A DNA stretch of 64,000 nt from Raillietiella orientalis (GCA_036172245.1 JAYWIR010000027.1:2852001-2916000); one strand, 5' to 3'. Shown: positions 7,401 through 49,507, counted from the stretch's first letter. Numbers and translations: made by a program. The notes: generated from the letters alone by a model not told the origin.

Positions 7401-8779
7401 GAAGGGTGCCCGTCTCCTCCCTTACCGCAGAGGACTCACAGCTGCCTATTAGACACCTCCGTGCGGCACAATCCCCTATCCGGTCTGACTATCGCCGACA
7501 GTACCACCCGAGCGGCACCGAGCTTCCTGTTCCTCAAAGGGAAGAGGGAGCGGGCGAACATGTTCGAGTTCAAGAGGAAGGGATCAAGGCAAAGCTCGAT
7601 ACAGACATCTCCCAAGACCCCATCATACATTGATAGGGACAATAGGAGGGATGATAAAGAGGGAGGTGCGGCAGTCACTGCGAGCGCCATCTCTATAAGG
7701 AGGACTGAGCAGGATGCTCCTGCAAGGTCGTAGCCGCCTGCTTTTTTCGTTCCCTCTCAAACTTTCTTATCAGGAGGGTTAAACAGAGGAGCATCGCTCC
7801 CTTCTTGCCCTTTTCTTTTCGTTACCTTCCCCCTGCTTGAGGACAATGTCGCCAGTTTCCTGTACTCTCCAGCCAGGTCGCTTCTGCCCTCTAGCAGCGC
7901 TTCCAAGAGCGACCGTTGCGAGTCTGGCAACCTTTTTCTCCAGCAGCCACCCCCGCCGTTCTCTGCCGTGGGGATGCAGGGGAAGACGATTCTGTGTTGC
8001 TTCTGCTCGTTTGGTGCTCTCTGTGCTACACTTTGATCTCCTCCCTGTGCTTACATTTAGCAGCGTACCCGCTCCGAATGGGTCACGCGCACACTTGCTC
8101 TCGATGAAGGTGCCTTCGGTCGTGGACAAAGGCGAAGAAGGAAACCTTTCTTTCCGCCCCGTGTGCTGCGACTTTTAAAAAAGGGTCGATGTTTTCCGAG
8201 ACATGATGCGAGGTGGCAGGGATTGTAGGCATCGCAGCAGAAACAGGCAGCAGAGCGGCGTTGCAGGCTTGCCTACCCCAAGGCTACCAGCCCTACCCTG
8301 CCGCTGCAGGGTAGACGCGTGCTCGTTTGCCTCTCGAGTCGCAGACTCCCGGAGTTTCGATCAACGACCAACGAACAGAGCGACCAACTGTCGGTTCTCT
8401 GCAAGAGCCAAGTCGTGGAGCCAGCCCTGCAGGAATGCGGGTTTAGCGGACCCATTCCTCAGAGCTCCACTGGGCATCGAGTACCGCGGTGCTGTGGGAA
8501 GTTGGACGACCTCGGTACCAGCGGCACTCAAGAAGTGTTCCTGCGATAGTGTTTGTGCTGTTGAGTCCAGCCGGTGGACACCAAAGCGGTGTGCCAAAGC
8601 GTCTGTTCCAGCTTCTCACGCAACGGTAAAGGCAAAGAAGCCACACATGGAAAAAAAAGTCCGCACTCCTCCAGCATTGACTGCGAGGAACACTGGATGA
8701 TGAAGAAACAGGAGGCCTTCTACGAGGAGAACACTCTTTGATGATGAAGCCACCCGCTTAACGCATGCAAGAAACAAAC

Positions 8780-9204
8780 CCAACCCACTGGACATTGTTG
8801 CTATGGGTGTGGGTAGGAGGAGTGAAGAGAGAAGAATAGGTTAAGCGCAAGACTAGAGACGAAAAAGCTCCTTCATGAGAAGGAAGTAATGTGTTGAGCG
8901 ACATGGCGGAGAACACGTTCGCAATGACTGTGGTAGCCCAGAATGCTATTTGTCCTCAGGGGAGAGCGTAACCTAGGGATGATGATGATATCAGGAGAAT
9001 GAGTAGTAGTAGACCTGACGTTCGGACTAAATCCTTCTTGTTAGAAAAGAAGTATAGTGCTCACAAGATGCGGAAGTAGATTGCTATGGAGAATAAAGAG
9101 GGGCGGTGGTAAGCATGAAGCGTAGCGTTAGGAGCCAACCGTTGCTGTTACCACTGTGCATGAAGAGGATGGAAAGGCTTCTGTAGTGAGAAGGGTATAA
9201 TGTA
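8780..9204 (-). pseudogene. cob: NUMT: mitochondrial cytochrome b, downstream part
   Basis: Minus strand in invertebrate mitochondrial code reads HYT...EAF...NGWLL.LRFM...LFS.AIYFRILWALY...SGLLLLILL.SSSLGYALPW(TGA)GQM(ATA)AFWATTVIANVFS. This contains the diagnostic cytb GYxLPWGQMxFW motif. Frameshifts are present. Confidence 0.92.
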
Positions 9205-10150
9205 ACCTCCCTCAAGAACATCAGGAACAGCAACGAACGAGCATTGTGGGAAGTGTCCTGCCTCATCCGAGGCAGGAGAAAACCATTGAAGGCGTGGACG
9301 ACTAGGGAGTTAGCGGCCGCTGCGACCCCGAGCGTCCCGTCTAAAGGAATTGTGCGCTTGGGCGAGGTGCCCGGCATACCTCCGGAGGAGGTGAAGTGGC
9401 CCCCAGCGTGCTGGGATAGTCTCACCCTGTCCCTGGAATGTCAGGAGACGGCGCTGCTAGTGTTCCATTGGGGACTCCTTTGCAAAGCACGCCTCTTCAA
9501 TTGGACATCAGGGACTGTGGATGCCAAGTGTGCAGGGTGAGGGGAACAAGAGACCTTCCCCCACCTCATCATCGAGTGTGTCGCCCTCCGACCCACGTGG
9601 GATCGACTGTCGGCGATCTTGAACATTCCCGAGGGCGACCCGAAGGACATTTTCCGTCGCCTCCTGATGCAGGACGCCCTGCCAGCAGCCGCGTGTGTGG
9701 CAGTTCTCTGCTGCATACGCGGGATGCTGGCAAAATGGACTGCGTCCAGGAGAGGACATAACAGCCGGAACGCCATCCAATGGGCAGCCCTCAACATTGA
9801 GAAAGCTTCCCGATGGTCCCGGCTGAGACCATTACGTCCGGCACTTATCCGCATCCTGAACAGGATGCAGAGAACCACTCGGAGCGATCAGTGATCCCTT
9901 CCCAGCCCTCCCTTCCCCGAAAACATTTCCCTCCCCTTGGTTTTCATTTGATTTTTCTGTTTTGTTTGTCGTTTTCCTTTCCCCATCGCATCCGGACAGG
10001 ATCTCTGCGGCCTGCGAACTGGCAGCGGCAAGTGTGTCAAGACAGACAGAACCACGGATTCTGTTTAAACTCATATAAGACTTTATTATGAAATTTTTAT
10101 TATGTAAAAATTTTAATAATAAATGCTTCGGCATATCCGGGTGATATATA
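9205..10150 (+). mobile_element. 5'-truncated non-LTR retrotransposon copy A (L1/Tx1-like zf-RVT C-terminus), inserted in the cob NUMT
   Basis: The frame reads LLVFHWGLLCKARL...DAKCAG*GEQETFPHLIIECVALRPTWDRL, a CxxC..E..H...C zf-RVT pattern, with stop at 9894. A T-rich 3' UTR, AATAAA at 10118 and the hairpin at 10125-10143 follow. It is flanked by tataatgta (9196-9204) and tgtaatgta (10151-10159). Confidence 0.85.
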
Positions 10151-10275
10151 TGTAATGTATCGAGACAGTGATGCCTGTAATTAGTTGAATAATAGAAAGG
10201 ACTCCTACGGGTGATCCTGGATTTCAAAAATGAGAAGTGTTCAAGGGCATGTCGACGTTGTGGGTGATTTTTTTT
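10151..10275 (-). pseudogene. cob: NUMT: cytochrome b 5' part
   Basis: Reads MPLNTSHFW(TGA)NPGSPVGVLSIIQLITGITVSMHY, matching the cytb PxNISxxWNFGSLLG...QILTG...MHY pattern. It joins the 8780-9204 piece at HY. Confidence 0.88.
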
Positions 10276-10289
10276 TTTTATTGAGGTTT

Positions 10290-10740
10290 GTCGATCGTTA
10301 GGAGAGCGAAGGAGTGTTCTGGATTGTAGGATTGTGTGCGGTGTAAGAATTATATTAACGTTGTCATGAGATATGAGGAAGGTACAGGTCATCGGGATGT
10401 TGGCTAGTGGGGGCAAGATTTCGGAGGAGAAAGATGGGGAGAGATGGATAAGATGAACAGGCACGAGGACCAGAATACGTGAAGAGGTTTGAGATTGAGT
10501 GGTTCGCTGTAGGTTAAAGATGTTATGTAAGGGAGAGTGAAGAAAACGCCTCCGATGTAGACGAGATAAAGGATGATGGCGTATCGTGAAGTTATGGAAA
10601 AGGGACTAGTAAAATGGTAACAGATAGGGAAGTAATAGAAAGTAGAAAGTCGTGATAATGGGATCGGCGTATGAGTAGAACGGGAGGATGTGATTATAAT
10701 TACGGTAATGCAAGGGGGTGTAGGTTGGCATGATTTTGTT
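10290..10740 (-). pseudogene. nad6: NUMT: NADH dehydrogenase subunit 6
   Basis: YAIILYLVYIGGVFFTLPY.TSLTYSEP resembles the ND6 LFLIYIGG..VLF.Y..SL motif. It lies directly upstream of cob on the same strand, a known invertebrate gene order. Confidence 0.78.
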
Positions 10741-10889
10741 GCTTGGAAGCAGGGGATCTTGAAAAGTAGTTGTTCCATAGGAATGCCTTGGGTTTCGATG
10801 ACCTTCGTAGCTGTAGATGAGACAAAGCATCGTGCATGAGGCTGGATAAAGAACTGGTACGTGAAACTATTCGGTCTCCTCCAGCAGCC

Positions 10890-11190
10890 ACCGCATCCAC
10901 AAAACGTCTGCTGTCGGTACGACATCAGAGTACCACAAGCGTATAAATACCAGCGGCAACCAATAAGGAGGCGAGCGCATACGTGCAAATCTGCAGGAGG
11001 GCAGACGCCGAGCACCTTCATGATGGAGGGAGATCAGTGTGCGTGCACTTTACAAAAAAACAACGACGAACGAACCCTCCAAAACGAATGTATGGGAAGC
11101 TTCTTAGAGATGACCCTGTTCGATTCCGGACACCAAGGAACCATCAAATTCTACGATGCTCCACATGTCTTCTGCTAACCCAAAGTTGAC
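10890..11190 (+). pseudogene. Probable degenerate CRESS-virus Rep N-terminal (HUH endonuclease) fragment
   Basis: EHLHDGGRSVCVHFTKKQRRT resembles RCR motif II (HLQG..VHFxKKQR), and an upstream CRYDIRV in another frame could be motif I. It is frameshifted and adjacent to the clear CRESS sequence. Confidence 0.45.
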
Positions 11191-11547
11191 CACCAAGCAC
11201 TGATGCATCAAACATCGATAGGTGTGGGTAGTGATCCAAACGACACCCTCAGAAGACCAACTCGCGCCGACGGTGTTGGAAGAAAACGGCGACCCATCAG
11301 TGAGGAGGTGCGCTGAACTCTCTACCTGATGCACCAAAGAGCACGGCAAAAATTAACAAAATGTAAACGAAAATCCAAGCGGCACATCGCATCTTCGCGC
11401 ACCCTCGAACCGAAAGCACAGACGGAAACGCAAGTGCAGTGCGTGCGCATTCGTCGAAGGGAATCCCTCTACTAGGGGTTTCCTCTCCCCTCCCGCAGCC
11501 ACCTTCCAGGTTAGCAGTGCGATTCACAGTGTCAGCAGCGGATTGTG

Positions 11548-12460
11548 GCGATGAGAAGCCGCGCCGAAAAAGGCCGGTCGGACGGTGACGTCACCGCCAC
11601 CATCTGCTCGTTCGTGAGGGAGGCGGCACCACGGCCACCTCTCACTGCCAGCAGCAGGATTTGCTCACATCCTCCGGAGGATGCTGAGGGATCCAGGAAG
11701 GAATCCTCGATCCTTTCCCTCCCCAACACGAGGGATGACCTGAAGTGGCCCCCAGCGATAACCGGAAGAAGGATCCTACCCCTAAAGTGGCAGGAGTCGG
11801 CGCTTATGCTGTTGCACTGGGGACTCCCCTGCAACGCACGCCGCCATCACTGGACACGGGGACGAGTGAATCCAAACTATGCCAGGAGTGGGGAGCGGGG
11901 ATCCCTCCCGCACCTCTTAGTTGACTGTGTTGGCCTCCGGCCCCTCTGGGAACGTTTCGGTACGACCCTAGGGATCGTGGAAGGTAGCCCTCTCAGAGAC
12001 GTTTTTCGGCTTTTCCTCGTGCGGGACGCCCTGCAGCCAGCCGCTGTCGCAGCAGCGCTCAGCTGCATCCGCGGTATTGTGGCGGCTTGGAGTGGATCCG
12101 ACGAAGCAGAAGATGCAAACGTCATGGAGTACGCAGCTCGCTTTCTGCGAATAGCAACCCGATGGCCCCACCTGGGAAATCTGCAGAAGGACCTCGTCGG
12201 CATCCTGCAAAGGATGAAAACTCCGCGCAGCGGACAGTGATCCCTTCCCGGCCCTCCAAAGAACTATGGTTTTTTGTTTTTCAGTTTTCCTTTATTTTGC
12301 TTGTTGCTTTTCCCACCCCCCTCCACTGACGTGGAGTGTCAGGTCGGAGTCTGCGCACCGACCACCCGGCAGCTCCCTAGTGCTATTGGCCGCAGCGGTG
12401 CCTCGTACCTCAAATACCGAAGGTTTTTTAAGAAACGCCCCGTCTTGACCGGGTGAAAAC
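11548..12460 (+). mobile_element. 5'-truncated non-LTR retrotransposon copy B (same family)
   Basis: Open frame to 12240 homologous to copy A (KWPPA...QESALMLLHWGLPCNARR...LPHLLVDCVGLRPLWER...LxxILQRM). 3' hairpin at 12437-12455. Candidate TSD gattgtg (11541-11547) / gattgcg (12461-12467). Confidence 0.85.
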
Positions 12461-13191
12461 GATTGCGTGGTCCTAGTGGTCACCGTGGATCGTTTTGTAG
12501 GAGGGTCGCGGTGTCCACTACAGCTGTTGGTTTGGATGCTGTTGCTAATCCGAAAGCGCCAGGGCAGATGGGACGTGTGACTGCGTGTTCTGTGCATGGT
12601 TACTTCGGTGACTGTTGGGATTGTTTTTCTTGGTTGGATATGTGTGGCATGTGTGACATGCATATGATGTTTCAAAAGATGCGTGTGGTCGGTATTCGTT
12701 ATCGCCTTGAAGTTTCGGATTATATGATGGGTGTTGAGACGACGCCCGAGTTAGATTTGAAGGAATTGCACTATGTGAAGAATTTAGCGTGTGGGCGGCA
12801 CCCTATGCAAGAAAATGAGTCTGCTGGTTCACCTGCTGGTCATGATGATATTGGACGGTATATCGAGTATTATCGTGGGAAACCTGGTGCGTGGCAACGA
12901 CGTATTGGGTTGTCTGGAAAGGGATCCGTGTATACTCCTGCTGTAGTTCAGTTGGAAACTACTTCGCTTGGGGGTATGTATATAAGGAGAAGGAAGTGCC
13001 CTTGGCTGGATACCGATAATTCGTATGATATGAAGGTGAGGGTGATGGGTTTGCGTGGGAGTATTATCAAGCATATTTCTGCTTTTAACGTCCCTGCCCC
13101 GTGGTTGGATGGCGTTCATTTCGCTCCTATCTGGCGTTTGCATCGTACAATTTATTTTCAATTTAAAAATGCTCGGTGCCCTGATTGGTGA
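12461..13191 (+). CDS. cap: Endogenous CRESS DNA virus capsid protein (circo/cyclovirus-like jelly-roll), N-terminus missing or displaced
   Basis: Uninterrupted 242-aa frame with MFQKMRVVGIRYRL, PWLDT and terminal TIYFQFKN, which are typical circovirus-like capsid motifs. It is convergent with a Rep gene. Confidence 0.8.
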
Positions 13192-13237
13192 AATACATTT
13201 TTATTGCTTTTATTGGAGTTCAACAATTATGCCTTCA

Positions 13238-13615
13238 TTATTTACGGTTAACACCGTTTTTTTTTCTCTGTGGGTCCTCGATTCGTTTCACTATCCATCG
13301 GTCTTCGCTGAGCTTGCTTGTGACTGGTTCCCAGTTTGCGAATATGATGACGTGTGGGGTGTTGAAGCATTTAATTTTTCTTTGGTACTTTGGGTCCATG
13401 ATGAGTCCGTTCTTGAGTGCCTCTATGAATCCATATTGTACTTGTTCGCGGTTGTCCCTGGTAAAGTCGATGATGATGATTTTATGCCCATTGAAGAGGT
13501 GTGCGGCGTCTTGCTTCCTACAACTTGTGAGGTATAGGGTGCCGCCATGCATGTAGAGATGCTTTGCGATTGTGTTTTTTCCACTGTTTCCTCTCTGATC
13601 GGCGTACCATCGATG
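13238..13615 (-). CDS. rep: Endogenous CRESS DNA virus Rep, C-terminal SF3 helicase domain (nanovirus/alphasatellite-like type), 5'-truncated
   Basis: WYADQRGNSGKN (Walker A), IIIIDFTR (Walker B), YGFIEALKNG...KY, HVIIFAN (motif C) and LSEDRW (Arg finger). Minus-strand AATAAA signals lie at about 13200-13214, between the two stop codons. Confidence 0.92.
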   Translation of the reverse strand, partial: HRWYADQRGNSGKNTIAKHLYMHGGTLYLTSCRKQDAAHLFNGHKIIIIDFTRDNREQVQYGFIEALKNGLIMDPKYQRKIKCFNTPHVIIFANWEPVTSKLSEDRWIVKRIEDPQRKKNGVNRK

Positions 13616-13619
13616 GCGC

Positions 13620-14391
13620 TGCCTCAGGGCAGCAGCGTGCGACAATAAGTGACGTGTGGGTGTCCACTCCAGCCAGCTGACCAGCGGGTGCTCCGATACT
13701 TCGCTTCCGGGGGCTGTTCTTCGGGACCGGAGGCGACCCTCTGCCCAGCTCCAGCGTTTCGGGACGCCGAGTCCGCCGTCCCGACGCGGAACGCACGAGT
13801 CCTTCCAGTGGACTCAGAACCCCCCAGGTGTGCCCCAAGAGGCCTACACTTTGATCTTAGCCAAAAGGCCGAGAAGCGAAGGCCTTTCGCCTCGGTCCCT
13901 TTGGTTACCCTACTTGGAGGACGGCAATCGAAAGGGAAGGGCAGGAGGAGGGGACCGCAAAAGGGCGCTCCACAGGACGGCCTGTTCCGGCAGGAGAAAC
14001 CCGCTATCCTGAAACGGGCCGAGCACACGTTGCCGCTCACTGCTGCACCTGCCGCCCTGATGCAGCCGTATCGGTTGCCGCGCAACGTCAGCAACCTCTG
14101 TACGGTCCTCCCACCTGTTGCTAATAGCAATGTTTGGCGCCTCGCACACGTTGTCGCTTATTGTTCACCCCACCCCACTTTTCCTGTGCGGACCTCAACG
14201 GACGGGCTGCTTACGAGAGGCAGCGCCTCCGGATATCTCCCTTCGTAGTGGAGGGCCACGAAACCTCTAAAGACATCCCCCTCGAAAGACATCTTTATAT
14301 AAAATATGACTGTTGTTTTGCAGATTTTTTTGTAATGTTTTTTTTCAAATTCTTTTTTACAATGAGCGCCCCGACGTGACCGGATGAAAAT
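13620..14391 (+). mobile_element. Divergent retroelement 3' end, copy C
   Basis: T-rich tail followed by the same terminal hairpin, gccccgacgtgaccggatg (14368-14386). The coding part is not recognisable and the left boundary is uncertain. Confidence 0.5.
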
Positions 14392-15099
14392 CCACCCCTC
14401 CCTCCCACCACACGAGTAGCAACGGCAGCCAGCCGTCCGACGTCAGCAAGCGGGTCGGATGGAGCGGCTCGGCGTCTGCCAACGACGGGCGTCGACGAAT
14501 GAAAAAAAAAAAAAAAAGAGAAACCCCTGTCGGGGAGCGCGGGAGCCACGACTATTCGGGTCCCCAAGCGGGATGGTGCCAGGAGGCAGCGGCGACCGCG
14601 GTGAACGATGGCGACTGCGTCGCCGCGGTGTTTGGGCGGATCAGCCGTTTGCCTGCAAGCTGTCCGTGCAGCAGGAGGCCGTCTCTCCACTTAGACGGCA
14701 GGGACCCCCTCGCCGGAGAAGGGCACTACCATTCAGGAGGGGAAAGAGAAATAGAGCAGGAGGGAACGAGAGGCTGCCACCCCATCATCCTCTTCCCAGT
14801 CGGAGCGGCCTACGTGGAGAGCACGCGGTGAACGCTGCAGCGAATGCGGGGCGCCACCGGCCTCTGCCGCTTCCGTGCCTCGCGCAGAAATCTCAACGGG
14901 CCACATGACCGGTAGGACGCGGGGCTTGCGGAGATGGAGCGCTGCGCTCCTTTGATCTCGCCTCTCGCCTCAAGGGATCCACGGTGTCGACGCGAATCGA
15001 GGGCGAAAGGTCCGGCAAAGCCCGTGCTGGGGACGTGGCGCCGTCCGCGAGCCACGCCAGGTAGGATGAGTGCGTGCGAACCCCCCATAAAGAAAGGGC

Positions 15100-16187
15100 C
15101 GTGCGGCCCGGTCTGCCACGAACCTGACCTTCCTCGTGACCCGAGACCCCGCTCATCGGCTGCTGCTCCTTCAAGTCCGTCCAAGGGAGCTCTGCTTACC
15201 CGCGAGCCCGAGGTTCATTGGTCCGGCTAGTGAGGGTTGGACTCGCGCGCGGGACAGCCGGGGCACCGTGAGGACTCGCCCTCCCGCCGAACGACCCCCG
15301 GGTCCAGAGGAACAGCGCGGACGTGATCAGAGCGCTTCTTGACACTCTGGAGAGGCACCGCCCCCCCACACCTAAAAAGGCAACACCCAGCCCCATGGTA
15401 CGACTTCACTTGTACAACCGGAGGGGAACCCCGAAGGGCTCCTTGATTCCTGAAAGGACCCCGGCGGGTCAACTTCCAATCCCGTCCAGTCAACTGGACA
15501 TCCGGCTTCCACTCCCCTACTTTTCCTGGTTGCTCTGCACTGCGACCTTCCATGCATGCAACGCCTGCCGGGATCATTAGACACGGGAGGGAGAGGTGGA
15601 CCCAAACTGTGGCAGGTGCAAGGAGCGGGAATCCCACCCGCACCTCCAAGTGAACTGTGTTGTCCTTCGGTCCCTTTGGGACGCTTTGCCGCGACTTTTG
15701 GAAGCCCCGGCGGCAACTCCAGGGACGTTGTCAAGCATCTCTGCCTGCGTGACGTCTCCACGCTGGCCGCATCTCCAGGAGCACTTTGCTGCTTACGCGG
15801 GGTCGTAGCTGCATGGAGCAGCAACGCCAGAGGAAGCCAGAGCAACAGGGACGCCATCTATTCTGCTGTCCTCTTCATGAGGACAGCGTCAAGATGGCCC
15901 AATCTGGGAACCATGAAACAGGAACTTGCCGGCATCCTTACAAGGATGCGGAGGACATCCTCCAGCACAAAGTGATTTCTTCCCGAACCCCTTCATTTTT
16001 TGACTGTATGTTTTGTTTTATTTATTTTTTTTCTTTTTGTTTGTCTTCCTTTCCCCTGTGCTGCCGAGGCGAACTCCGTTCCCAGCAGGCTCCTTCTCGT
16101 AGCTATAAGTAACGTGGCAGGATCAAACGCCCTGCCACACACGTTTACTTTTTATAAATAAATGCCCCGACGTGACCGGGTGTCAAC
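15100..16187 (+). mobile_element. 5'-truncated non-LTR retrotransposon copy D
   Basis: DPNCGRCKERESHPHLQVNC (intact zf-RVT), frameshifting into ALCCLRGVVAAW...ASRWPNLGTMKQELAGILTRM* (15975). AATAAA at 16157 and hairpin at 16164-16182. Left boundary approximate. Confidence 0.85.
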
Positions 16188-16345
16188 CAGTGTCGCACTC
16201 GAATGTAGGCCAAGCAGCATGATCTTTTAGGGGAAGAGACTGGAAACCCACGGCGCACCCACCATTTCTCTGCGTCGATTCTCCAAGTGGAGATTCGAAC
16301 CTGCAACGCTCGGTGCCACGCGCGAAGACCGCACGCACGCACACA
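16188..16345 (-). mobile_element. tRNA-derived SINE-like element, antisense to LINE copy D
   Basis: B-box GGTTCGAATC on the minus strand (16292-16301). The body aligns by eye with 32645-32800 and 42845-43008. Confidence 0.6.
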
Positions 16346-18812: not shown

Positions 18813-20723
18813 CTAATGGTGCTGACTGCTACTTGATTCTGCTTCTTGCTTTTTGATTTTTATCAGATGTGCCAGGTATTTGAATCTCTTCAGACACTCC
18901 TCCTAGAAAGTGACATCACACACTGAGATGGGTCTTACCATTTCCCTACCTTGTCCTTCCCCTCTACAGCATCTGCTATCCGATCCCACCTCTCCATGGT
19001 TCCTTTAGGATAGGTTACTAAAGCATGCTCCAAAGCGTGCTGTTGTTTCTGAGTCCAGCCATCTGCAACAAGATGCTGCATTTCTTCTGCTAACTGCTCT
19101 GAAAGCAGCACTGGCTTTGGAACTTCCTGGGTCTGTGATAGCTGCTGTGATTTGTAATCATTCTCTTTCATTTTTTTTGCCATCCTTGTAACTTCATACA
19201 CAGAACGATGCATTTGTTTGGCAATGATTTCCCAGCGTCCACTGTAGCCTCCAGGATAACGTTTCATGAGCTGTGCTAATTCAGCTACATCACTGTCTTC
19301 CCAAAAGCCGCCAGTAATATCAGAAGCCTGAAACTCGTGGCATTCTCCATCAATCTCAATCACTTCCTTGGTTTCTTCTTTTTCATACTCTGGATAACAA
19401 AAGTGCCAAGAATCCAAACTTGGCTCCCAGTACCTGCAATTTCTGGAATCACAGGTGCCTTCCAAGACTTGGTCCTCTTTTCGAATTTTGGCATAGATTG
19501 TTCTTTTGCTTTTTGCAACTTGGCTTTGTGAGCTGCTTTCCTATGCTGATGGATGGCATTTAGCAACTGTGGGATGTTAAACACCAACATCCGCAATCCT
19601 GACCACAACTGGAAAGGCCACAAGTTGGTGTAACTGAAAAATACAAGGGTACATCATTCATTAGAACCATAACAGGCCAAAGTGAATTCGCAAGTGGCCT
19701 TTCTGGTTTTGGACTAGAACTGGAATTCTGTGACAGGAAGGCAAAATGCCATGGGATGAATGAAGGATATAGGCAACAGTGGGGATTGGAAGTATCATGT
19801 GTAGTTACTTAACCAATGCTACATCATTGAAAGGAATAGGCAAAGAAACAAGGTCAACTTACTTGACTAGCATTTACCTCGGCTTTGGGATGTGAACACT
19901 TGAATGTTTCCTTCTCTGAGGCATCTGAAATGCATCCATTTAAACCACCATGAAATATGACCGTTTTGTATTTCTTCTCAGTTGATTAGATAAACAGATG
20001 CCAAAACTCACATAAAATTGTTTCTCATAGTAGGAAGCCCATGACACACCATACTGTCCTACGGTGAATATAATACAAAGAGTAAACAATAATTCCGTTA
20101 TTGAGAGCTTCTTAACACGTCTAAAATAGTACACCGGCTGTTTCCAGTTTGGTAAACCTTCTTCCAATATTTTTTCATATTTTTTCCTTTTCTCGTCATC
20201 ACGAAGGATATCGTGCACCGCTGTTAACTACAATTAGGCTGGCATAAGGAAAAACATCACATGCACGTTGCAGGAAAGCAATCAGACAAACTACCCAGGC
20301 ATCATATTTGTTGCACTGACCTGCCTAAATTTAATTTCGGCATCTGCTTCGGAATTTCTGTCGGGATGAAGTTTCAGCGACAGCTGTCTATAAGATTTTT
20401 TTATTTCTTTCACGGTTGCATTCTAAAAGAGATTGAGGATGTCGATCACAAGCTTTGTGTGAATCACACGTCAAACACTGTTTCCATCACACCCAAATCG
20501 TGAACACGAGTGGTGTGATCACCTTCACTGTCCACGTCCCATGGGGCAAAAATCCCAAGTGCAATCGTTCAAAACACAAACTTACTTTAGGAACTTGCAA
20601 CAGTTCGTAAAAGCTCTGATTGACTTCCTCCACCAAGTCGAACAATTCGAAGTCACTGAAATCCCACTCGCCACAGCATGGTGCCACAGGGATTAACAGG
20701 TACACGAAAATTTGGGACAGCAT
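18813..20723 (-). CDS. DNAJC1: DnaJ homolog subfamily C member 1 (ERdj1/MTJ1)-like, multi-exon
   Basis: Signal-like N-terminus, [24 protein letters not shown]-domain [32 protein letters not shown], a TM segment and two SANT domains ([44 protein letters not shown]). Short GT-AG introns. Confidence 0.93.
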
Positions 20724-32644: not shown

Positions 32645-32800
32645 AGAAAATTCCTGCCGAGCGGCTGCGACGGCCTCCGCGCACCGATCGCCGCGGTTTC
32701 GAATCTCTCCCAGGGGTAAGAACCAACGCTAAGAACGGGGGGGAGCGCCTCGGGAGTTTCGAGTCTTCCCCCGCCTCGTTTAGCCTCTTGCAGCACTGGT
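32645..32800 (+). mobile_element. tRNA-derived SINE-like element
   Basis: A-box-like TGCCGAGCGG (32655) and B-box-like GTTTCGAATC (32696) at tRNA spacing; ends cagcactggt. Confidence 0.6.
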
Positions 32801-34190
32801 TGACACCCGGTCACTCCGGGGCGTTTATTTATAAAGTAAACATCCACGTCTGTGGCAGGACGCTCGATCCAGCCACGAGAAGGAACTTGCCGGGAACTGG
32901 CACGCAGGTCAGCGGGGTTCGCCTCGGCAGCACAGAGGAAGGGGAGACAACAAAAAGAAAAAAATAAATAAAACAAAAAACATAAAGTGCAAAAAATGGA
33001 AGAGGTTCGGGAATTGATCACCGGGTGCTAGAGGGTGTCCTCTGCATCCTTGCAAGGATGCCGGCAAGTTCCTGTTTCGCTGTTTCCCGATGGGGCTATC
33101 TTGACGCTGTCCTCATGAAGAGGACAGCAAAATAGATGGCCTCCTCTGGAGTTGCTCCATGCAGTCAAGGTCCTGCCGCGTAGGCAGCAAAGTGCTGCTA
33201 GGGATGCGGCACTGTAGGAAGCTGGAAACCCCCGGGTGTCTTCATTGACTGGCCGGAGCTGCGAGTTGACCCTACGGGATCCTTCCAGGAAATCAAGGAA
33301 TCCTTCAGTTGTGAAGAGGGAGCCATCCCCTCCCTCATCCCTCGGGAAGAGGAACCCTCCATGGTGCACCACGGAGCTGGTTGATACCCATTCCCCCTCA
33401 GGGTGCTGCTTCTACGGAGTGTCAAGAAGCGCGCTAATAAATAAATTATGTATATAAATATTTTTATGTTACATAATAATATTAAAATTATATAAACTTA
33501 TGCTAAAATATATTAATATTAGTTAATTAATTACATTTGAAATTATAAAATACATATTTAAACTCCAAATAATTTTAGGATAAATTAAAGCAAATAAACT
33601 TTCACTACTTTATAAAAATAACTAACCAGGCCAAACACTTAAAAGATAAAATTCAAAATCCTTATCTAACTCTAATTAGGACTACCTACTCCCTTCGGGG
33701 TCCTCTCCAGAGGAAGAAACAGGGAGCAGATCCTTTCCGGGAGTCCCTCCGGAGAAAAAACGAGAAAGGGCTCCCTCTGGCGAGAATAAGGAAGAGGTTC
33801 GGAGCCATCCTGGATTCATAGGGTGCTCCCTTCGGGGTTGCCCATTGACGGATTGTGGTTTCTGTAGATGGCCGAGCCGCAACTCCTGAGCTCACAGCCG
33901 CCATGTTGCGAGTGAAGAAAACCATAACCGAGAGGGTAGACAAAAGGGGAGAACCATGGTCCAAAAGGGGAGAGGAAGGAGAAGCAGAAATGGTGGCGAT
34001 GCCACTGCAGCCTCGAAACACTCTTCTCTCTCGTCCAGAGTGACAGTTTACGAAGAGCTGCGAATACGCTAAAGCACCGACGCCTTTTCTGTCCCACCAG
34101 CCACCAACGCAGCGGGGGAGGTCCGCCACCGAGAGAATTCCGGGAGCGCACGGAGACTTCAAAAAAAGAGAGTGAGGTTTCTGATCCATC
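32801..34190 (-). mobile_element. Non-LTR retrotransposon copy E (minus strand), interrupted by an AT-rich insert
   Basis: The 3' UTR and C-terminal coding region are clearly homologous to copy D (15780-16190). Hairpin at 32804-32822 and AATAAA at 32824-32829. Confidence 0.8.
33435..33686. other. Very AT-rich insertion of about 250 bp, possibly a mitochondrial rRNA (rrnL-like) NUMT
   Basis: Sharp compositional break. The flanks (gagcgc / tcccttcgg) are contiguous in the paralogous copy near 43205-43225. The mitochondrial identity is only a resemblance. Confidence 0.4.
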
Positions 34191-40700: not shown

Positions 40701-43700
40701 CGTCGCGCCTTCTCAGGATTGGAAATTTTTTTTCTCCCAGTTTCCTCGTTCGTGCTTGCCTCGTGTGCATGCTCAGCAACGTGAAGATTCGAAATGCTCC
40801 TCCTCGATGTTATGAATGGCTTTTGGAAACCCTCGCCGGCTTAGTAGCAAGAGTCGTGTTTCCTTTCGGTGCAACGGTTTTTTTTTTTTTGGTTTCTGCC
40901 CTCGATGGAGACCAATTTGGATGGAGGGGGGGAGGGGCGGCATGGTACTAACACGAATGAACAAGCAGTTACCTCTTAAGGACTACCGAAGTGATCGAAA
41001 AATGCTTACAAAGGGACACTTTCGTAATCCGAGTCATTCATCTGAAATTTCCTTTCTTACCGCTGAGCGTTGCAGCTGATGATCGGTCAGCCTTTTCGGC
41101 CTTTGCTTCGTTTTTTTTTATTATTGTTATTTGCGCCGACAGGTTGTCGAGCAGTTGCAGCGATCGCTCATGCTTTTTTTTTCTCACTCTCTCTCTTTTG
41201 CTCGCATTCCAGATTTCATTTCGGCAGTTGAAAGCTGGTTTGATGTTCTGCTACCGATGATTAAACCCCATCTGTATCAAAATGGAGGCCCCATCATCAT
41301 GGTGCAAGTACGCTACCTCTTTCCACTCGCACCCAACATTTGAAAGTTCCTTCCCCCCCCCCCCCTTCCGCCCACCGTGTATCTTTCTAAGCCTGTCTGT
41401 GGCAAGTCACTCTCTCCCTGTTGCTCACGGGTCCTTTCTTGTGTCCTGGGCTAAACGCACAGCTGCTATAATCTTGAACTTGATGAGCGCGGTGTCCTAA
41501 AATGTGCTTGGTGTTCGGACTTAGATCGAGAACGAATACGGAAGCTACGGCTGCAACCCGGCTTATCTCTCTCGCTTGAGGGACATCGTGAAAACGTATC
41601 TTGAGGAAGACGTCGTGTATTTCACTACGGACGGCGACTGGGAACAGGCACTTCAATGCGGAAGTATCCAGGGCACCCTGATGACTGTTGACTTCGGTTC
41701 GGGTAAGAGGAACTATTGCTTCGTTCCCATCTGTCACCCGCTCCCTGCTGTCCTGGTCTTGAGACGGTTGGCGAACCGAAGCCTGATGTGACCTTTCTTA
41801 ACGGAAGTCGCGCGAGAGACCGTGAGTCGCGGTAGCGATCCCCTCAGTACGTACTGCCTGTTTTGCGTTCCTCGTCCTAGCGTATCTCTTGACACGGTTC
41901 CATCTAGGGTGGACTTGGCCCCTGTGTGTTCTGAGGTCGTCCCTCGACCGTGACCAGATCCTCATCTGATATCGCCTGCGAGCGCCGCTCCCATTCTTCC
42001 GTGTGCGTTTTCCATCTTGGATTCCGTCCGCATGTCGATTGGCTCCCTCCCTTCCTCGAAGATTTCCTTAGAGGAATACCGCCGGAGGAATGGTACAACC
42101 CAACGTGCTTTCGATGGGTTCTGCGCTGTTTTCCTCGTCCTTCAGTTCTCCTACCACCCCTTGGATCCACCCCATTCATTTCTTCCTACGTCTGGTGCTT
42201 GAATCGCGCGAGGGGAATCCCAAGTGCTGATTCGGGAACCACATGTGACGATAAGGACGCGGAAAATTAAATCTCTTCGAGTATGGCTGGAAACCCAAGA
42301 CCTCATGAAAGTAAAACGTGAAATTTCTGCGGTGGATTCAGCGCTGACGTTAAGACAGGGTTCTCCCTGGGAACAGAGGATCCATGCTATGTGGAAGGGA
42401 CGGTTCTGGTTGAGTCCCAGGATAAAGCAAGAATGAAAATCCAAGGATCACGCAAGCTACGGAAGCTGGCGCGAGGGAGCAAACTTTCACTGTAAGCAGC
42501 AGGTTTGCCACGTCTTCTCGAACGATCCTGAGCGAAGGTTTTCACAACTGCTGCCACTCATCAAGTGCGGATTGCAGAAGAAGAAAAAGAAAATCACCCG
42601 GGGACTAGCCGAGAGAGAAAAAAAAAATTCACGTTTCACATCAGGTTGTGAAGATACATCTCTGATTGGAATGAACATTTTTGTATTTACGGGAAAACTT
42701 CGTGGTAACAAAAGGAGGCAACACTACCACGAGTGACACTTTGGCACGAAAATCGCGTGCCCTTCACCTCATTCGGCAAGCACTGCTTTCGAGGAACCTT
42801 CACGCTTTCCATTTCGAGCAGCAGGACGGGAAGCGGCCGTCCTGCCTGCTTGGCAGCGGCCGTGTGGCTGTCCCTCCGCGCACGGTGCCGGGCTCGAATC
42901 CCTCCCGGGGGAGGAAGGGTCGGCACCGAGAACGGGGGTGTGCGTCGTGAGCTTCGAGTTCCACCCGTAAGATGACGTTTGATTCGCCGATTCGGGTACA
43001 GCACTGGTGGAAGGCGGAAACTCCCGGGTGTCCCTGTTGACTGGCCAAGACTGACCCTCCAGGATTCTTCCAGGACATTGAGGAGCCGTTTAGAGTTCCA
43101 CCCGGGTTGCAAAAAGGGAGCCATCTCCACCTTCCTTGGGAGGGAAACCCTCCATCGCGTGCCACGGAGCTGGTGGATTGATGACACCTCTCCAGAATGT
43201 CATGGAGCGCACTGCTCCCTTCGGAGAGCGCCCTTCTGGGAAACTGGGAAGCGTGCCTTTGGGGTTCTCTTCAGAGGAGTAACAAGGGGCAGTTTCCTGG
43301 CCAGGATCCTCCCGGAGAAGCAACGAGGACCGGACCCCACAAACCGGGGGGTCCCTCCCGAGAGAATGAGGAAGAGGTGATTCACTTCGGGGTTCCCTGC
43401 GGAGACAACCAGTCCTGGGATTCTTTTCAGGGTTCCCCTTACCAAGCTCGAGAGCGGCAGACCCTTCTTCCTCCGGAGTCTTCCTGGATTCATAAGGTGA
43501 TCCCCTCCCGGGGTCATACCCCGATAACTTGGAGGGTCACCTCGAATGACGTGGACGGTGCTTCAAGAGCTTCATGACCCCCCAGGCAAACGGTTCTTGG
43601 GTACTCAGCAAACCTCAAAAGAGTAGATTTGAAGGGAAAAAAAAAAAAAAAATACTTCTGGAAGGAAAACAGCGAAACAGAAGGGTCAGTGTCATCCTAG

Positions 43701-46700: not shown

Positions 46701-49507
46701 CTACCGCCTCCCGAGAAACAAGTTCCACTCCTACCGCAAGTACAATGGACTCGATGAGCCCTCCAACTTTCCGAAAATCTTCCTCGGCTTCTTCAGCCTA
46801 CCAAAGCGACTAAAGGAGCCACTAGACACGTTCCTGGATCTGAAGGAAGGCTCCTGGGGAAAGGTGCGTGCGAAGGCCGGTCCGCGACCCTTGCCCATCC
46901 CGCTCTGCTGCGCGTACCCCGAGGCGCAAGAGCAGGAACGATGGAAGGGAGGGAGGGAAGAAGGGGCCTCACTCGGAGCGCATGTCTGGCGAGCCCAAGA
47001 GACCACTCCGTTCGTTGCTCCCGGAGCGTCCTACGCACGCAGCCTCCCTTCAGCTGGCGAGACCGCCACTGGGGGAAAAGAACGAGCTGCGCCAGCTTCT
47101 TCTTGGACTTCCCCCCCCCCTTCCGCACCCTTCAAGTGCACTACAGGAGAGGTTGCAGGAGAGAATGTGAACGCAGGCTCATCCTTTCTTCCGAAGTGGC
47201 GAGCTCCCCACGCTTCCTTCCTTCCGCCTCTCCCTAGTCTCGTCCCGGCAGGTGGTGGCGGTGCTAAGGCCCGGCTCCACCTACAGCTCCTCGCTTGCGA
47301 GCATGACGTGTGCGCCCCTTCCCGTTCACTCCGAGGCGCAGTCCGGGGAACGATGCTAGGCGGGAGAAGCGCTCTTCCCTTCAGCGCCTAGCGACCGGGC
47401 TCGCTCGCTAGTCGGGCGTCGCCGTGGTTGCCCGCAGCTGGGCACCAGGCAGTTCCTTGTGGTCGCTTCTCCATCGCCGACGTTTACCGTTCGTCTCCGC
47501 CGTCGACTCGCGTCGACTGCCTTCACCCGTGACCATGACGCGGGCGTGACGCGCACGATGCACGTGCGCGAGTCGTCATCATCAGGTATGCGGCTGGAAC
47601 AAATGCTTCTCGTTTCTGGATCTCGGGGTTGCTGTTTCCCGTTGCAGCTGTTCTTATTTGTCAGTTGTTGTTCAGTCTACCATTTAACATCACTGCTGTT
47701 ATTTGCATTCGATGTTTTGATCCTTCCAAGTGATTTCTATAAAGTCGCTATTAACATTTTTGGATCCTTTCGTTTTCGATATTCTTTTACGTCACCACGT
47801 CGCGAGCCGCGCTCATTTATTATTACGCACTGTTGCTGCAGTTTTCGCAGTGGTTATTCACATGGTGTCGGTCGTTACCACGGTGGGTGGGCGGCCCTGC
47901 TTGTAGTTTTCCACTTTCAACCGCTGTTTGCGTGGTCCCGTTTCGTGCTCCGGATCGCAGCGGAAGCTCCTGGTGGTGAGCGCACTCTTTCTTTTCCTCG
48001 TCTTCCCGGGAGTTCCGTCTGGCATCCTCGGGTCGTCGTCAGCAGCAGCGGTTGCTCTTCGCACTGTCGTAGGCATTCCTTACGTTACTGGGTAGGTGCT
48101 TTTCCTACCACCTTTGCTGGTTCCTTTCGCTCGGAGGTTTCCTGCAGCCCAAGATCTCATTCCTCTCGATGAAACTTCTACCTAGAAGTTCGGGAACTTT
48201 TTTTTCATGGCATCCTGAGCTGTGCGCTGGTGCCTTTGCTCCCCCGATTTTTTGAAATTGCGGCTTCACGAAGAACGTTGACGTTAAGACAGGGTTCTCC
48301 CTGGGAACAGAGGATCCATGCTATGTGGAAGGGAGGGTTCTGGTTGAGTCCCAGGATAAAGCAAGAATGAAAATCCAAGGATCACGCAGGCTACGGAAGC
48401 TGGCGCGAGGGAGCAAACTTTCACTGTAGGCAGCAGGTTTGCCACGTCTTCTCGAACGATCCTGAGCGAAGGTTTTCACAACTGCTGCCACTCATCAAGT
48501 GCGGATTGCAGAAGAAGAAAAAGAAAATCACCCGGGGACTAGCCGAGAGAGAAAAAAAAAATTCACGTTTCACATCAGGTTGTGAAGATACATCTCTGAT
48601 TGGAATGAACATTTTTGTATTTACGGGAAAACTTCGTGGTAACAAAAGGAGGCAACACTACCACGAGTGACACTCTTTGGCACGAGAATCACGTGAAAAA
48701 TGTAGTTCGTGTATTGCAGAGTAGCTTAGTTTATCCCATTTATCATGGTCTTAAGTGAAATTTACGTTGCTCGATGTGTGTTTCTCCGCTTTTCGGGAGC
48801 GAAAATTGGCGAAAGTGGTCCACTGACCTGTGCTTCAAAATCTCGTTGCGTGATGACGTCCAGAGGGTCCTCACAGCAGCTTACAGTTGTAGCAGCTGAC
48901 CCGTACTACTCCACAATTTTGTTTTTAGAAATGTCACAGCAGCCACACCGGTTGATTGGACAGATGACCGTGCACGAACAATTGTCAATGCTCTTGACCA
49001 TCTTGCTTGCGTTGGGTGTGAATATGTAGGTGGGCGTTCGGGGAGACCTTCTAATTGGTCAGCTCGGTTTGCGACACACGGATGCTCCGAGTATCAATAA
49101 GTCTTCGAGACTATGCATGTGACAAGTCCTGCGCGAAATGCTGTGAACTGAAATCGCAGCAACACCGGTTTACCTCGGAACCACTTTGGTTGGAAACGTG
49201 TCTGTGAACTAAACGAAAGAAAGAAAAATGTCCATCTGATTATTTCATCCGTGGCAGCTCTTGATTCTTTTTTGTTCTTTTCCAGGGAGTAGTCTTAATC
49301 AATTACTTCAACTTGGGCAGGTATTGGTCCACTGAAGGGCCTCAGTGGACTCTATATGTACCGAAACAGATCCTCAGACCATATCCGGAAAAAAATATGA
49401 TCGCCATTCTGGAACAAGAAAGTGCTCCCTGTTTGGAACTAGGAAGACGCTGCCATGTTCGATTTGTTGATCATCCAATTATCAACGGATCGACTCCAAA
49501 CCACTGA
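34710..49507 (+). CDS. GLB1: Lysosomal-type beta-galactosidase (GH35), 12 exons: about 34710-34733, 34871-35052, 39036-39186, 39980-40040, 41213-41307, 41525-41702, 44541-44762, 44807-44925, 45636-45899, 46349-46503, 46621-46863, 49286-49507
   Basis: [60 protein letters not shown] (acid/base Glu), [14 protein letters not shown] (nucleophile Glu), [27 protein letters not shown]...GPQWTLYVP. The first exon is tentative. Confidence 0.93.
40495..40625 (+). repeat. Dispersed non-coding repeat; second copy at about 42207-42337
   Basis: gcgaggggaatcccaa...gtgacgataaggacgc...aaattaaatctcttcg...gaaagtaaaacgtg is present at both sites. Confidence 0.8.
42345..42759 (+). repeat. About 415-bp near-identical intronic duplicate, copy 1
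   Basis: Almost base-for-base match to 48279-48695; the ORF track gives an identical 74-aa translation at both sites. Confidence 0.95.
42845..43008 (+). mobile_element. tRNA-derived SINE-like element, third copy
   Basis: TGGCAGCGG (42851), GGCTCGAATCC (42891), body gaacgggggtg..gcgtcg..agcttcgagtt; ends cagcactggt (42999-43008). Confidence 0.55.
43009..43570 (-). mobile_element. LINE fragment F, same family, 3' end deleted
   Basis: Aligns with 33215-33430 and 33687-33840 (gggagccatc...aaccctccat...ccacggagctgg). Confidence 0.7.
46015..46345 (+). repeat. Degenerate (GT/AT)n microsatellite in a GLB1 intron
   Basis: Long imperfect tgtg/tatg run. Confidence 0.9.
48279..48695 (+). repeat. About 415-bp near-identical intronic duplicate, copy 2
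   Basis: Matches 42345-42759. Confidence 0.95.

Follow-up and report, generated by a model that had tools for sequence, protein, structure and literature searches.

Retrotransposons make up 89% of the flanks of human NUMTs compared with 41% genome-wide in the cited part of PMC3467031, and the patches found at repaired breaks include partial LINE-1, cDNA and mitochondrial pieces in the cited part of PMC5110952. In the mosquito Aedes aegypti, a 143-kb flamenco-like cluster with antisense transcripts and phased piRNAs is described in the excerpted sections of PMC7161354, and in carnivores, circovirus-derived elements were fused to LINE-1 and amplified, according to the portion of PMC6372831 drawn on here. 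The locus of Raillietiella orientalis described in this study resembles each of these systems as they appear in those excerpts. It shares with the NUMT break-repair insertions (PMC3467031, PMC5110952) a partial, collinear piece of mtDNA that is embedded in non-coding sequence and flanked on either side by retroelements; with the Aedes cluster (PMC7161354), the interleaving of viral fragments and same-orientation retroelement fragments in an intergenic repeat patch; and with the carnivore fusions (PMC6372831), Rep fragments of a circular ssDNA virus that adjoin LINE sequence.

The window analyzed is the whole 64,000-nt stretch of DNA at GCA_036172245.1 JAYWIR010000027.1:2852001-2916000, and the cluster occupies its positions 8,780-16,345 (about 7.5 kb) in an intergenic gap that holds a dead mtDNA fragment, CRESS-virus fragments and several same-direction copies of one LINE family (Table 1). 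The evidence that can be checked leans toward the null model of a neutral insertion hotspot, and the cluster is rather probably a site with no dedicated function, at which foreign and mobile DNA piled up passively in an insertion-tolerant gap flanked by two 3'-facing genes. The right-hand neighbor is a minus-strand Myb/SANT-domain exon and plus-strand coding-like frames lie to the left, so that the cluster is situated downstream of both, with their 3' ends facing. Within this stretch, which is GC-rich, A/T content is highest in the NUMT and EVE pieces (GC 0.43-0.46 compared with 0.55-0.67). The order given in the original prediction, cob(3')-LINE A-cob(5')/nad6-Rep-like piece-LINE B-cap/rep-LINE C-unknown-LINE D-SINE, largely stands, except for the labels LINE C and SINE.

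Table 1. Coordinates of the features of the cluster and of the outlying LINE copy, counted from the first nucleotide of the window.
Feature	Position	Strand	Description
NUMT cob 3' piece	8801..9205	-	cob residues ~60-185; pseudogene with one in-frame TAA and a frameshift near 8900
Left TSD of LINE A	9196..9205		TATAATGTAA
LINE A	9206..10145	+	940-nt 3' fragment; ORF interrupted once by an in-frame TGA; 3' UTR rich in A/T; end motif diverged
Right TSD of LINE A	10146..10156		TATATATGTAA
NUMT cob 5' piece	10146..10277	-	cob residues ~13-58
NUMT nad6-like region	10300..10866	-	several frames; right border uncertain, ~10790-10900
Rep-1	10980..11169	+	putative Rep helicase fragment of CRESS type, decayed by a frameshift and a stop
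LINE B	11515..12456	+	open 241-codon ORF2 C-terminal region, 3' UTR, end motif; 5' border undefined
EVE-2 cap	12457..13191	+	putative capsid gene; open 244-codon frame; first ATG 12568
EVE-2 Rep-2	13238..13612	-	SF3 helicase half of CRESS Rep; open frame; match 13244-13609
U2 snRNA 5' fragment	13845..13880	-	nt 1-2 to ~36, beginning at the 5' end of the RNA
LINE C	14352..14387	+	tail only; A/T-rich stretch before it, from ~14280
LINE D	15433..16183	+	3' fragment with frameshifts; CxxC...H...C knuckle seen by eye
Post-LINE D stretch	16184..16330		common to LINE D and copy E
LINE copy E (fifth)	32650..33306	-	outside the cluster, 16 kb away; same downstream stretch as LINE D

The assignment of the cob and nad6 pieces to mtDNA in the original prediction was borne out. 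The cob 3' piece matches the Pfam family Cytochrome_B over 8899-9105 (1.5e-14), and all 44 of its 44 PDB matches are cytochrome b/b6 (best 1.6e-12, query 11-82 against chain 96-168), the stretch down to about 8801, which lies in another frame, and that up to 9205 being judged by eye. The cob 5' piece likewise matches cytochrome b in the PDB (best 8.8e-6, query 8-46 against chain 20-58), with a Pfam E of 0.0016 that falls below the cut-off. For the nad6-like region, the top three of four PDB matches are ND6, spanning 10446-10607 at E values of only 0.04-0.05; a Pfam search gave no match and ARAGORN at default settings found no mt-tRNA in it, and its GC is 0.43 compared with 0.55-0.56 in the flanks. 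The gene order, nad6 then cob on one strand, is collinear with a mitochondrial gene order, and, as judged by eye, conserved Trp positions are occupied by TGA and a conserved Met position by ATA. The NUMT is decayed, with an in-frame TAA and frame changes. LINE A interrupts cob at an A/T-rich target site and is flanked by a TSD of about 10 bp, whose left and right copies align with 10 matches in 11 positions and one gap. Across the empty site cob stays in frame, the codons of 9196-9205 running on in 10146-10156. As had been proposed, LINE A therefore entered mtDNA that was already contiguous, so that at least one LINE is younger than the NUMT and arrived in the usual way.

The remaining LINE copies are related to LINE A to different degrees. 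Homology of LINE B to LINE A begins at 11733 (65.9% identity over 537 nt; proteins 46% over 39 aa, E 4e-11), B and D are 71-76% identical (76% over 125 nt), and D and E are 77.9% identical over 443 nt and 77.6% over 76 nt. Copies that are 66-78% alike represent separate old insertions of diverged sublineages. The nearest Atlas cluster of LINE B has zf-RVT in 25% of its members, with 21 of 30 matches in that set. Only the last 0.75-0.94 kb or so of the element is present; a Pfam search of the ORF pieces gave neither an RT nor an endonuclease domain and no zinc-knuckle match, and two clade searches returned 0 matches and one match of 87 aa, respectively. What had been called the LINE C end is reduced to a tail of about 35 nt, whose alignments are confined to the last 33-36 nt (80% of 35 with D, 78% of 36 with B, 79% of 33 with E) and which gives no match to LINE A at E up to 1. 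A shared 3' end is present in several of the diverged copies: a 19-nt end motif, searched with up to 3 mismatches across the 64 kb, gave four matches compared with 0.01 expected, in B, C and D on the plus strand and in E on the minus strand (exact in D, 1 mismatch in C), copy A being too diverged for this threshold. The co-orientation of the four LINE ends in the cluster, which the original prediction had noted, holds for all four, but the common hairpin in which they were said to finish is instead this conserved 19-nt motif, with fold z-scores of -1.2 to +1.4 giving no support for folding.

The stretch that follows LINE D had been read as a SINE. It is found again after copy E, at 32.8 kb on the opposite strand (65 of 93 positions identical, E 9e-10, in addition to 12 of the first 14 nt), and is thus not an independent insertion but part of a repeated composite with the LINE tail. 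A tRNA-derived SINE at 16184-16330 was rejected, the stretch trailing the LINE tail in both copies and giving no tRNA or Rfam match, with relaxed ARAGORN calls only.

The cap/rep segment is of CRESS-virus origin, as first suggested. Over residues 222-341 of the Rep encoded by the viral contig L001, Rep-2 shows 39% identity (E 1e-24 and 6.6e-20); it has a GC of 0.45 and is cut mid-gene against GC-rich non-viral sequence, GC jumping to 0.67 at 13613. The HUH endonuclease half, represented by L001 Rep residues 1-221, gave no match anywhere in the window, and none of the 62 ORF pieces matched a Rep family in the Pfam search; without an endonuclease half, the CRESS remnants are partial. For the putative cap, the nearest Atlas clusters are Cressdnaviricota (0.95 and 0.93), the Pfam match to Circo_capsid (E 0.035, 14.8 bits) lies below the cut-off of 36.2, and sequence searches gave no homologues. 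Cap and rep converge tail-to-tail over a 46-nt spacer, a layout as in ambisense CRESS genomes, and this seemingly native arrangement together with the missing Rep half fits the capture of a DNA fragment. The nonanucleotide of CRESS origins is NANTATTAC; none occurs in the region, and the two matches elsewhere in the window compare with 2.2 expected. A stem-loop at 12456-12496 has a fold z of -1.9. The Rep-like piece of the original prediction, Rep-1, is a candidate only, matched as two collinear segments in a single permissive tblastn with Rep-2 as query (10980-11066, query 33-61, 38%; 11116-11169, query 77-94, 39%), with a joint E of 6.8e-4 compared with 0.23 for the next best match, whereas Pfam gave no match and BLASTP only E 0.4-0.5 (0.52 and 0.43).

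A fragment of U2 snRNA, overlooked in the original prediction, was also recognized between Rep-2 and the LINE C tail. The Rfam U2 model matches 13825-13880 at 32.8 bits (gathering threshold 46; E 0.001), with high posterior over the first 36 positions.

A likely course of events can be proposed for the passive pile-up. The mtDNA, comprising nad6 and the first half of cob, was probably ligated as filler during end-joining repair of breaks, and the fragments of circular ssDNA CRESS viruses, namely the decayed Rep helicase piece and the separate piece with cap and half of rep, probably served as filler too. A single compound event may have brought in both the NUMT and Rep-1. Later, 5'-truncated copies of one stem-loop-tailed LINE family would have been inserted by target-primed reverse transcription, and no more than a few insertions into a short, presumably neutral stretch would be needed to give the co-orientation and alternation. 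Target-primed insertion is demonstrated for LINE A and is presumed for B and D; against the pile-up, LINEs B, C and D have TSD candidates at chance level only. The clustered, co-oriented ends also stand against it, in that the chance of four of five LINE ends falling within 6 kb is p = 0.014, and p = 0.0018 with co-orientation, under a uniform null that disregards uneven insertion tolerance along the window and with p-values that are post hoc. Furthermore, the frames of cap, Rep-2 and LINE B are still open, which could reflect youth or constraint. Only one feature is poorly explained by chance, the direct contact of the NUMT with a viral fragment: the putative Rep-1 lies within about 80 nt of the NUMT and a second viral remnant follows 1.3 kb on, which is hard to obtain from independent rare events and suggests either a hotspot or a compound event. 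This abutment and the start of the U2 fragment at the 5' end of the RNA are hints of a capture process, but not of one linked to this LINE.

It is unlikely that the cluster is instead a small uni-strand source of the piRNA type. All four tails are co-oriented and the nearest right-hand gene is on the minus strand, so that a read-through transcript from it would run antisense to each of the four LINE ends, would include the viral and mitochondrial pieces as well, and could provide heritable small RNAs against the LINE and viruses. The mosquito cluster, in which hybrids of TE and EVE sequence on one strand yield the antisense transcripts and phased piRNAs, offers a precedent for such an arrangement. 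However, the viral pieces lie in both directions (Rep-1 and cap plus, Rep-2 minus) and one of the four "LINEs" is the short tail described above. Known piRNA clusters comprise numerous families and extend over tens to hundreds of kb, whereas in place of the many TE families of a uni-strand cluster, a single retroelement family was found here in just 7.5 kb, with only six repeat pairs in the whole 64 kb.

Similarly improbable is a seeding of the foreign pieces by the LINE machinery itself, through endonuclease nicks that open breaks or through RT template switching and cDNA patches. For NUMTs, mediation of insertion by L1 endonuclease nicks has been proposed in the cited part of PMC3467031, and the carnivore elements are a precedent for virus-LINE fusion. 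The possible cDNA patches are the U2 fragment, whose start at nt 1-2 is expected of a run-off cDNA and not of a piece of a U2 gene, and perhaps a Rep-1 transcript, as Rep-1 precedes LINE B on its 5' side and has the same orientation. A near-repeat of 11 nt with 9 identical positions occurs at 10901 and just past LINE B, where the TSD of a joint Rep-1 and LINE B insertion would fall, but about 0.4 such pairs are expected by chance over the scanned region according to a hand estimate. LINE A, on the other hand, plainly entered a NUMT that was already in place. Nor does template switching from the LINE copies present fit the following pieces: U2 is antisense to the closest LINE tail (C), the strand of cob, nad6 and Rep-2 is opposite to that of the LINEs, and cap is located on the 3' and not the 5' side of LINE B. 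Copy E, moreover, has no adjoining match in a search that covered Rep- and cap-like sequence.

A compound break-repair mosaic, in which extrachromosomal circles (mtDNA and two different CRESS viruses) and reverse-transcribed RNAs (LINE 3' ends lacking TSDs and the U2 5' end) would have been stitched together at one or a few germline breaks, recurring beside this LINE family through its endonuclease and afterwards supplying heritable small-RNA templates, appears quite improbable. An assembly artefact that joined mitochondrial or viral reads to nuclear repeats is very improbable: the joins lie at LINE tails, where assemblers err, and the cap and Rep-2 frames are intact, but the NUMT, unlike true mtDNA, is a pseudogene with a stop and frameshifts that is split by a TSD-flanked LINE, Rep-2 ends mid-gene at GC-rich non-viral sequence and Rep-1 is decayed.

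Chimeric retrocopies of snRNA and LINE sequence, such as U6-L1, have reportedly been found, and SINEs headed by snRNA exist. The U2 fragment resembles these in that it starts at the native 5' end of the snRNA and adjoins sequence unrelated to it, and differs in being only 36 nt long and antisense to the adjoining LINE tail, with no definable TSD or tail. In contrast to the Aedes cluster, which in the cited sections of PMC7161354 comprises many RNA-virus EVEs joined to LTR elements, with a demonstrated antisense transcript, the present cluster, known from DNA alone, combines one LINE family with ssDNA-virus and mitochondrial pieces in mixed orientation. The carnivore circoviral fusions were copied 10-20 times by retrotransposition in the cited portion of PMC6372831, whereas here no second virus-LINE join occurs within the window and cap is retained. 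Finally, retrotransposons seldom straddle human NUMTs and the NUMTs do not cluster in the cited part of PMC3467031, whereas in R. orientalis a later LINE lies inside the NUMT and a viral fragment abuts it.

The interval in which mitochondrial, viral and LINE-derived DNA had been described as alternating was probably formed by end-joining capture, in which mtDNA and viral DNA would have been taken up as break filler, possibly in one compound event, followed by separate LINE insertions. After four corrections, the observation made in the original prediction is largely right. The cytochrome b (cob) identity of the nuclear mitochondrial copy (NUMT) holds: the piece left of LINE A matched Pfam Cytochrome_B (1.5e-14) and gave 44 PDB matches, every one cytochrome b or b6 (best 1.6e-12, query 11–82 against chain 96–168), and the piece to its right was aligned to cytochrome b residues 20–58 (PDB, best 8.8e-6). 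The nad6 assignment, upstream of cob, is retained at E 0.04–0.05 only: four PDB sequences matched, the best three being ND6, and Pfam gave nothing for this region. Conserved Trp positions are occupied by TGA and the Met in the conserved "MHY" by ATA, and nad6 and cob lie on one strand; the source was presumably an invertebrate-type mitochondrial genome. The copy is dead, with an in-frame TAA and frame changes. No mt-tRNAs were found in the NUMT at default search settings, and 50 calls at a relaxed setting were taken as noise. At the nad6/cob boundary lies an A-run (10267–10280, A11 on the mitochondrial sense strand), which may be native mtDNA or the trace of a polyadenylated transcript.

Features of the cluster and its surroundings in window coordinates
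Feature	Position	Strand	Remark
NUMT, left cob piece	8758–9147	-	
LINE A	9206–10145	+	parts the cob pieces
NUMT, right cob piece	10113–10277		
NUMT, nad6-like region	10446–10607	-	
Rep-1 (candidate helicase piece)	10980–11066, 11116–11169	+	
cap frame	12457–13191	+	
Rep-2 (helicase piece beside cap)	13244–13609	-	
GC-rich segment X	13613–13844		GC 0.61–0.67 (X, Y and unnamed segment together)
U2 snRNA 5' fragment	13845–13880	-	~36 nt, from the RNA's first bases; Rfam E 0.001, below gathering score
GC-rich segment Y	13881–14279		
Unnamed GC-rich segment	14388–15432		
Stretch after LINE D	16184–16330		
Exon with two Myb/SANT-type matches	18938–19540	-	right of cluster
Stretch after LINE E	32650–32793		
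LINE copy E	32794–33306	-	77.9% identical to D
Repeat pair	23598–23685/24420–24507		92%
Repeat pair	32206–32350/43320–43176		73%
Repeat pair	40466–40626/42179–42339		83%

The target-site duplication (TSD) reported for LINE A was confirmed, with TATAATGTAA (9196–9205) repeated as TATATATGTAA (10146–10156) and a length of 940 nt delimited by it. When the insert and one repeat are taken out, cob is in frame and its conserved HY and HA are separated by ~28 residues, a spacing that agrees with solved cytochromes b. LINE A inserted in the usual way into a NUMT that was already in place.

The last ~750 nt are common to A, B and D (A/B identity 65.9% over 537 nt; B/D 76% over 125 nt and 71% over 94 nt). 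A 19-nt end motif gave four matches at ≤3 mismatches in the 64-kb window (B, C, D and E) against 0.01 expected, the end of A being too diverged for this threshold. LINE C carries the motif, but its likeness to the other copies is confined to the last 33–36 nt. The ends had been described as the same hairpin; the shared motif is able to form a 4–5-bp stem but folds no better than shuffles (z -1.2 to +1.4), and "same end motif" should be the wording. LINE B keeps a 241-codon frame open, and its nearest Atlas cluster has zf-RVT in a quarter of the members. A reverse transcriptase was not found in the LINE copies; Pfam and a word-based search among longer proteins (0 matches) returned nothing for classification, and from the single match (87 aa) of a full HMMER search no clade is assignable. 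TSD searches for B, C and D gave chance-level candidates only. A metagenome scan for the tail motif returned at least 120 loci, of which none of the 120 listed resembles the LINE beyond the motif and three match 20 nt only, and these were dismissed as chance; tblastn with the LINE B ORF, Rep-2 and cap gave no matches among the listed loci. In B (11515–12456) the ORF in the LINE frame begins 942 nt ahead of the tail, and in D (15272–16183) 912 nt ahead of it. Both distances are close to the length of A, which may be coincidence because an ORF start does not mark the border of an element; over its first ~180 nt, A shows no similarity to the corresponding upstream regions in B and D. A 16-A run (14502–14517), 115 nt past the LINE C tail, could represent the poly(A) tail of a short plus-strand retrocopy.

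The stretch after D had been called a SINE. The same ~135–147-nt sequence also trails E (12 of the first 14 nt match, then 65/93 are identical, E 9e-10), and it therefore did not insert on its own but belongs to a LINE-tail composite that is repeated, or is a target that the LINE prefers; tRNA and Rfam searches did not recognize it as tRNA-derived. The sharing could reflect a longer 3' end in the D/E sublineage, targeting of this sequence or duplication of the composite.

The predicted cap/rep segment survives with its native tail-to-tail layout, the putative cap frame ending 46 nt from the rep stop, but with the helicase half of Rep only. Viral contig L001 encodes a Rep of 446 aa whose residues 222–341 are 39% identical to Rep-2, and that Rep carries the usual rolling-circle and helicase motifs. 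The endonuclease half was not found anywhere in the window, Rep-2 gave no meaningful PDB match and 0 matches in a longer-length search, and a search with the L001 Rep returned L001 itself only. The Walker A position of Rep-2 (13560–13600, minus strand) reads G-N-S-G-K-N, without the Ser/Thr that usually follows the Lys. This deviation and the absent endonuclease half argue against a working Rep-2. Support for the cap frame is indirect, from a Pfam match below the cut-off (E 0.035) and from Cressdnaviricota clusters in the Atlas (0.95 and 0.93), and no homologues were found in viral contigs, a near-length search or PHROGs. Right at the LINE B end, upstream of cap, begins an 8-bp stem (AAAACGAT / ATCGTTTT) that closes a loop of 25 nt (12456–12496; z -1.9, 11/200 shuffles fold as well), which could be a viral origin remnant or chance. 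The other "Rep-like piece", Rep-1, was recovered weakly, by permissive tblastn with Rep-2, as two collinear pieces (joint E 6.8e-4; next best match 0.23), starting at most ~80 nt from the NUMT right end, but was unsupported by Pfam and pairwise BLASTP; if real, it would be a second, decayed helicase fragment in the other orientation.

The U2 fragment, which has the truncated Rep-2 on one side and LINE C on the other, shares the sense of Rep-2, opposite to that of the LINE tails, and has the look of a run-off cDNA. Its start at the RNA 5' end, the position of Rep-1 5' of LINE B in the same sense, and a carnivore circovirus–LINE-1 precedent (PMC6372831) are what LINE-linked capture of foreign DNA can draw on; this explanation is nevertheless unlikely, as LINE A came in later and the majority of the foreign pieces either run antisense to the LINEs or lie 3' of them.

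Segments X, Y and the unnamed segment gave no match in a family search with ORF pieces. Across 10700–11560 and 13560–15460, none of 62 such pieces matched a family relevant to the Rep endonuclease half or to further viral or mitochondrial DNA, and four had weak unrelated matches (E 0.018–0.34). Inverted arms of 22 nt, 82% complementary (13615–13636 and 14206–14227), flank the U2-containing segment; a wider inverted similarity (13590–13900 and 13960–14300) was unconvincing, with scattered 63% identity. An 8516/10948 repeat (17/20) was discarded, ~1 such match being expected by chance on our estimate. The youngest repeat in the window is a 420-nt direct duplication (42342–42759 and 48276–48695, 98% identity).

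The cluster stretch has a GC content of ~0.55–0.65. The coding-like plus-strand frames on its left had been named MIDN, which Pfam did not confirm; the right-hand exon would fit the proposed DNAJC1. With plus-strand frames on the left and a minus-strand exon on the right, the cluster lies downstream of both convergent genes. Under a uniform null, which ignores the insertion tolerance of gene-free gaps, four of five LINE ends within 6 kb gave p = 0.014, or 0.0018 with co-orientation added, and three of four in the same span with C left out gave p = 0.087; all these values are post hoc, many windows having been scanned. A piRNA source would agree with the co-orientation and with the direction that read-through could plausibly take, but is likewise improbable given the small size, low TE diversity and mixed orientation of the viral pieces (compare PMC7161354). 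An assembly error is very improbable.

Independent events account least well for the position of the NUMT directly against a viral fragment, 1.3 kb from which lies a second viral remnant. If the ordinary reading is true, the cluster would be a well-documented case of a NUMT and ssDNA-virus remnants in one intergenic patch with LINE fragments, a fossil datable via related genomes that leaves the general understanding of such loci unchanged. What deserves attention is that mitochondrial and viral DNA lie immediately side by side. Should this recur beside this LINE tail elsewhere in the genome, retroelement activity would be tied to extrachromosomal DNA uptake, a link that to our knowledge is as yet no more than a proposal, made for primate NUMTs. 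End-joining capture followed by LINE insertion has parallels in retrotransposon-rich NUMT flanks (PMC3467031) and in break patches built of LINE, cDNA and mitochondrial pieces (PMC5110952); the cluster is a further instance of an already known type of locus.
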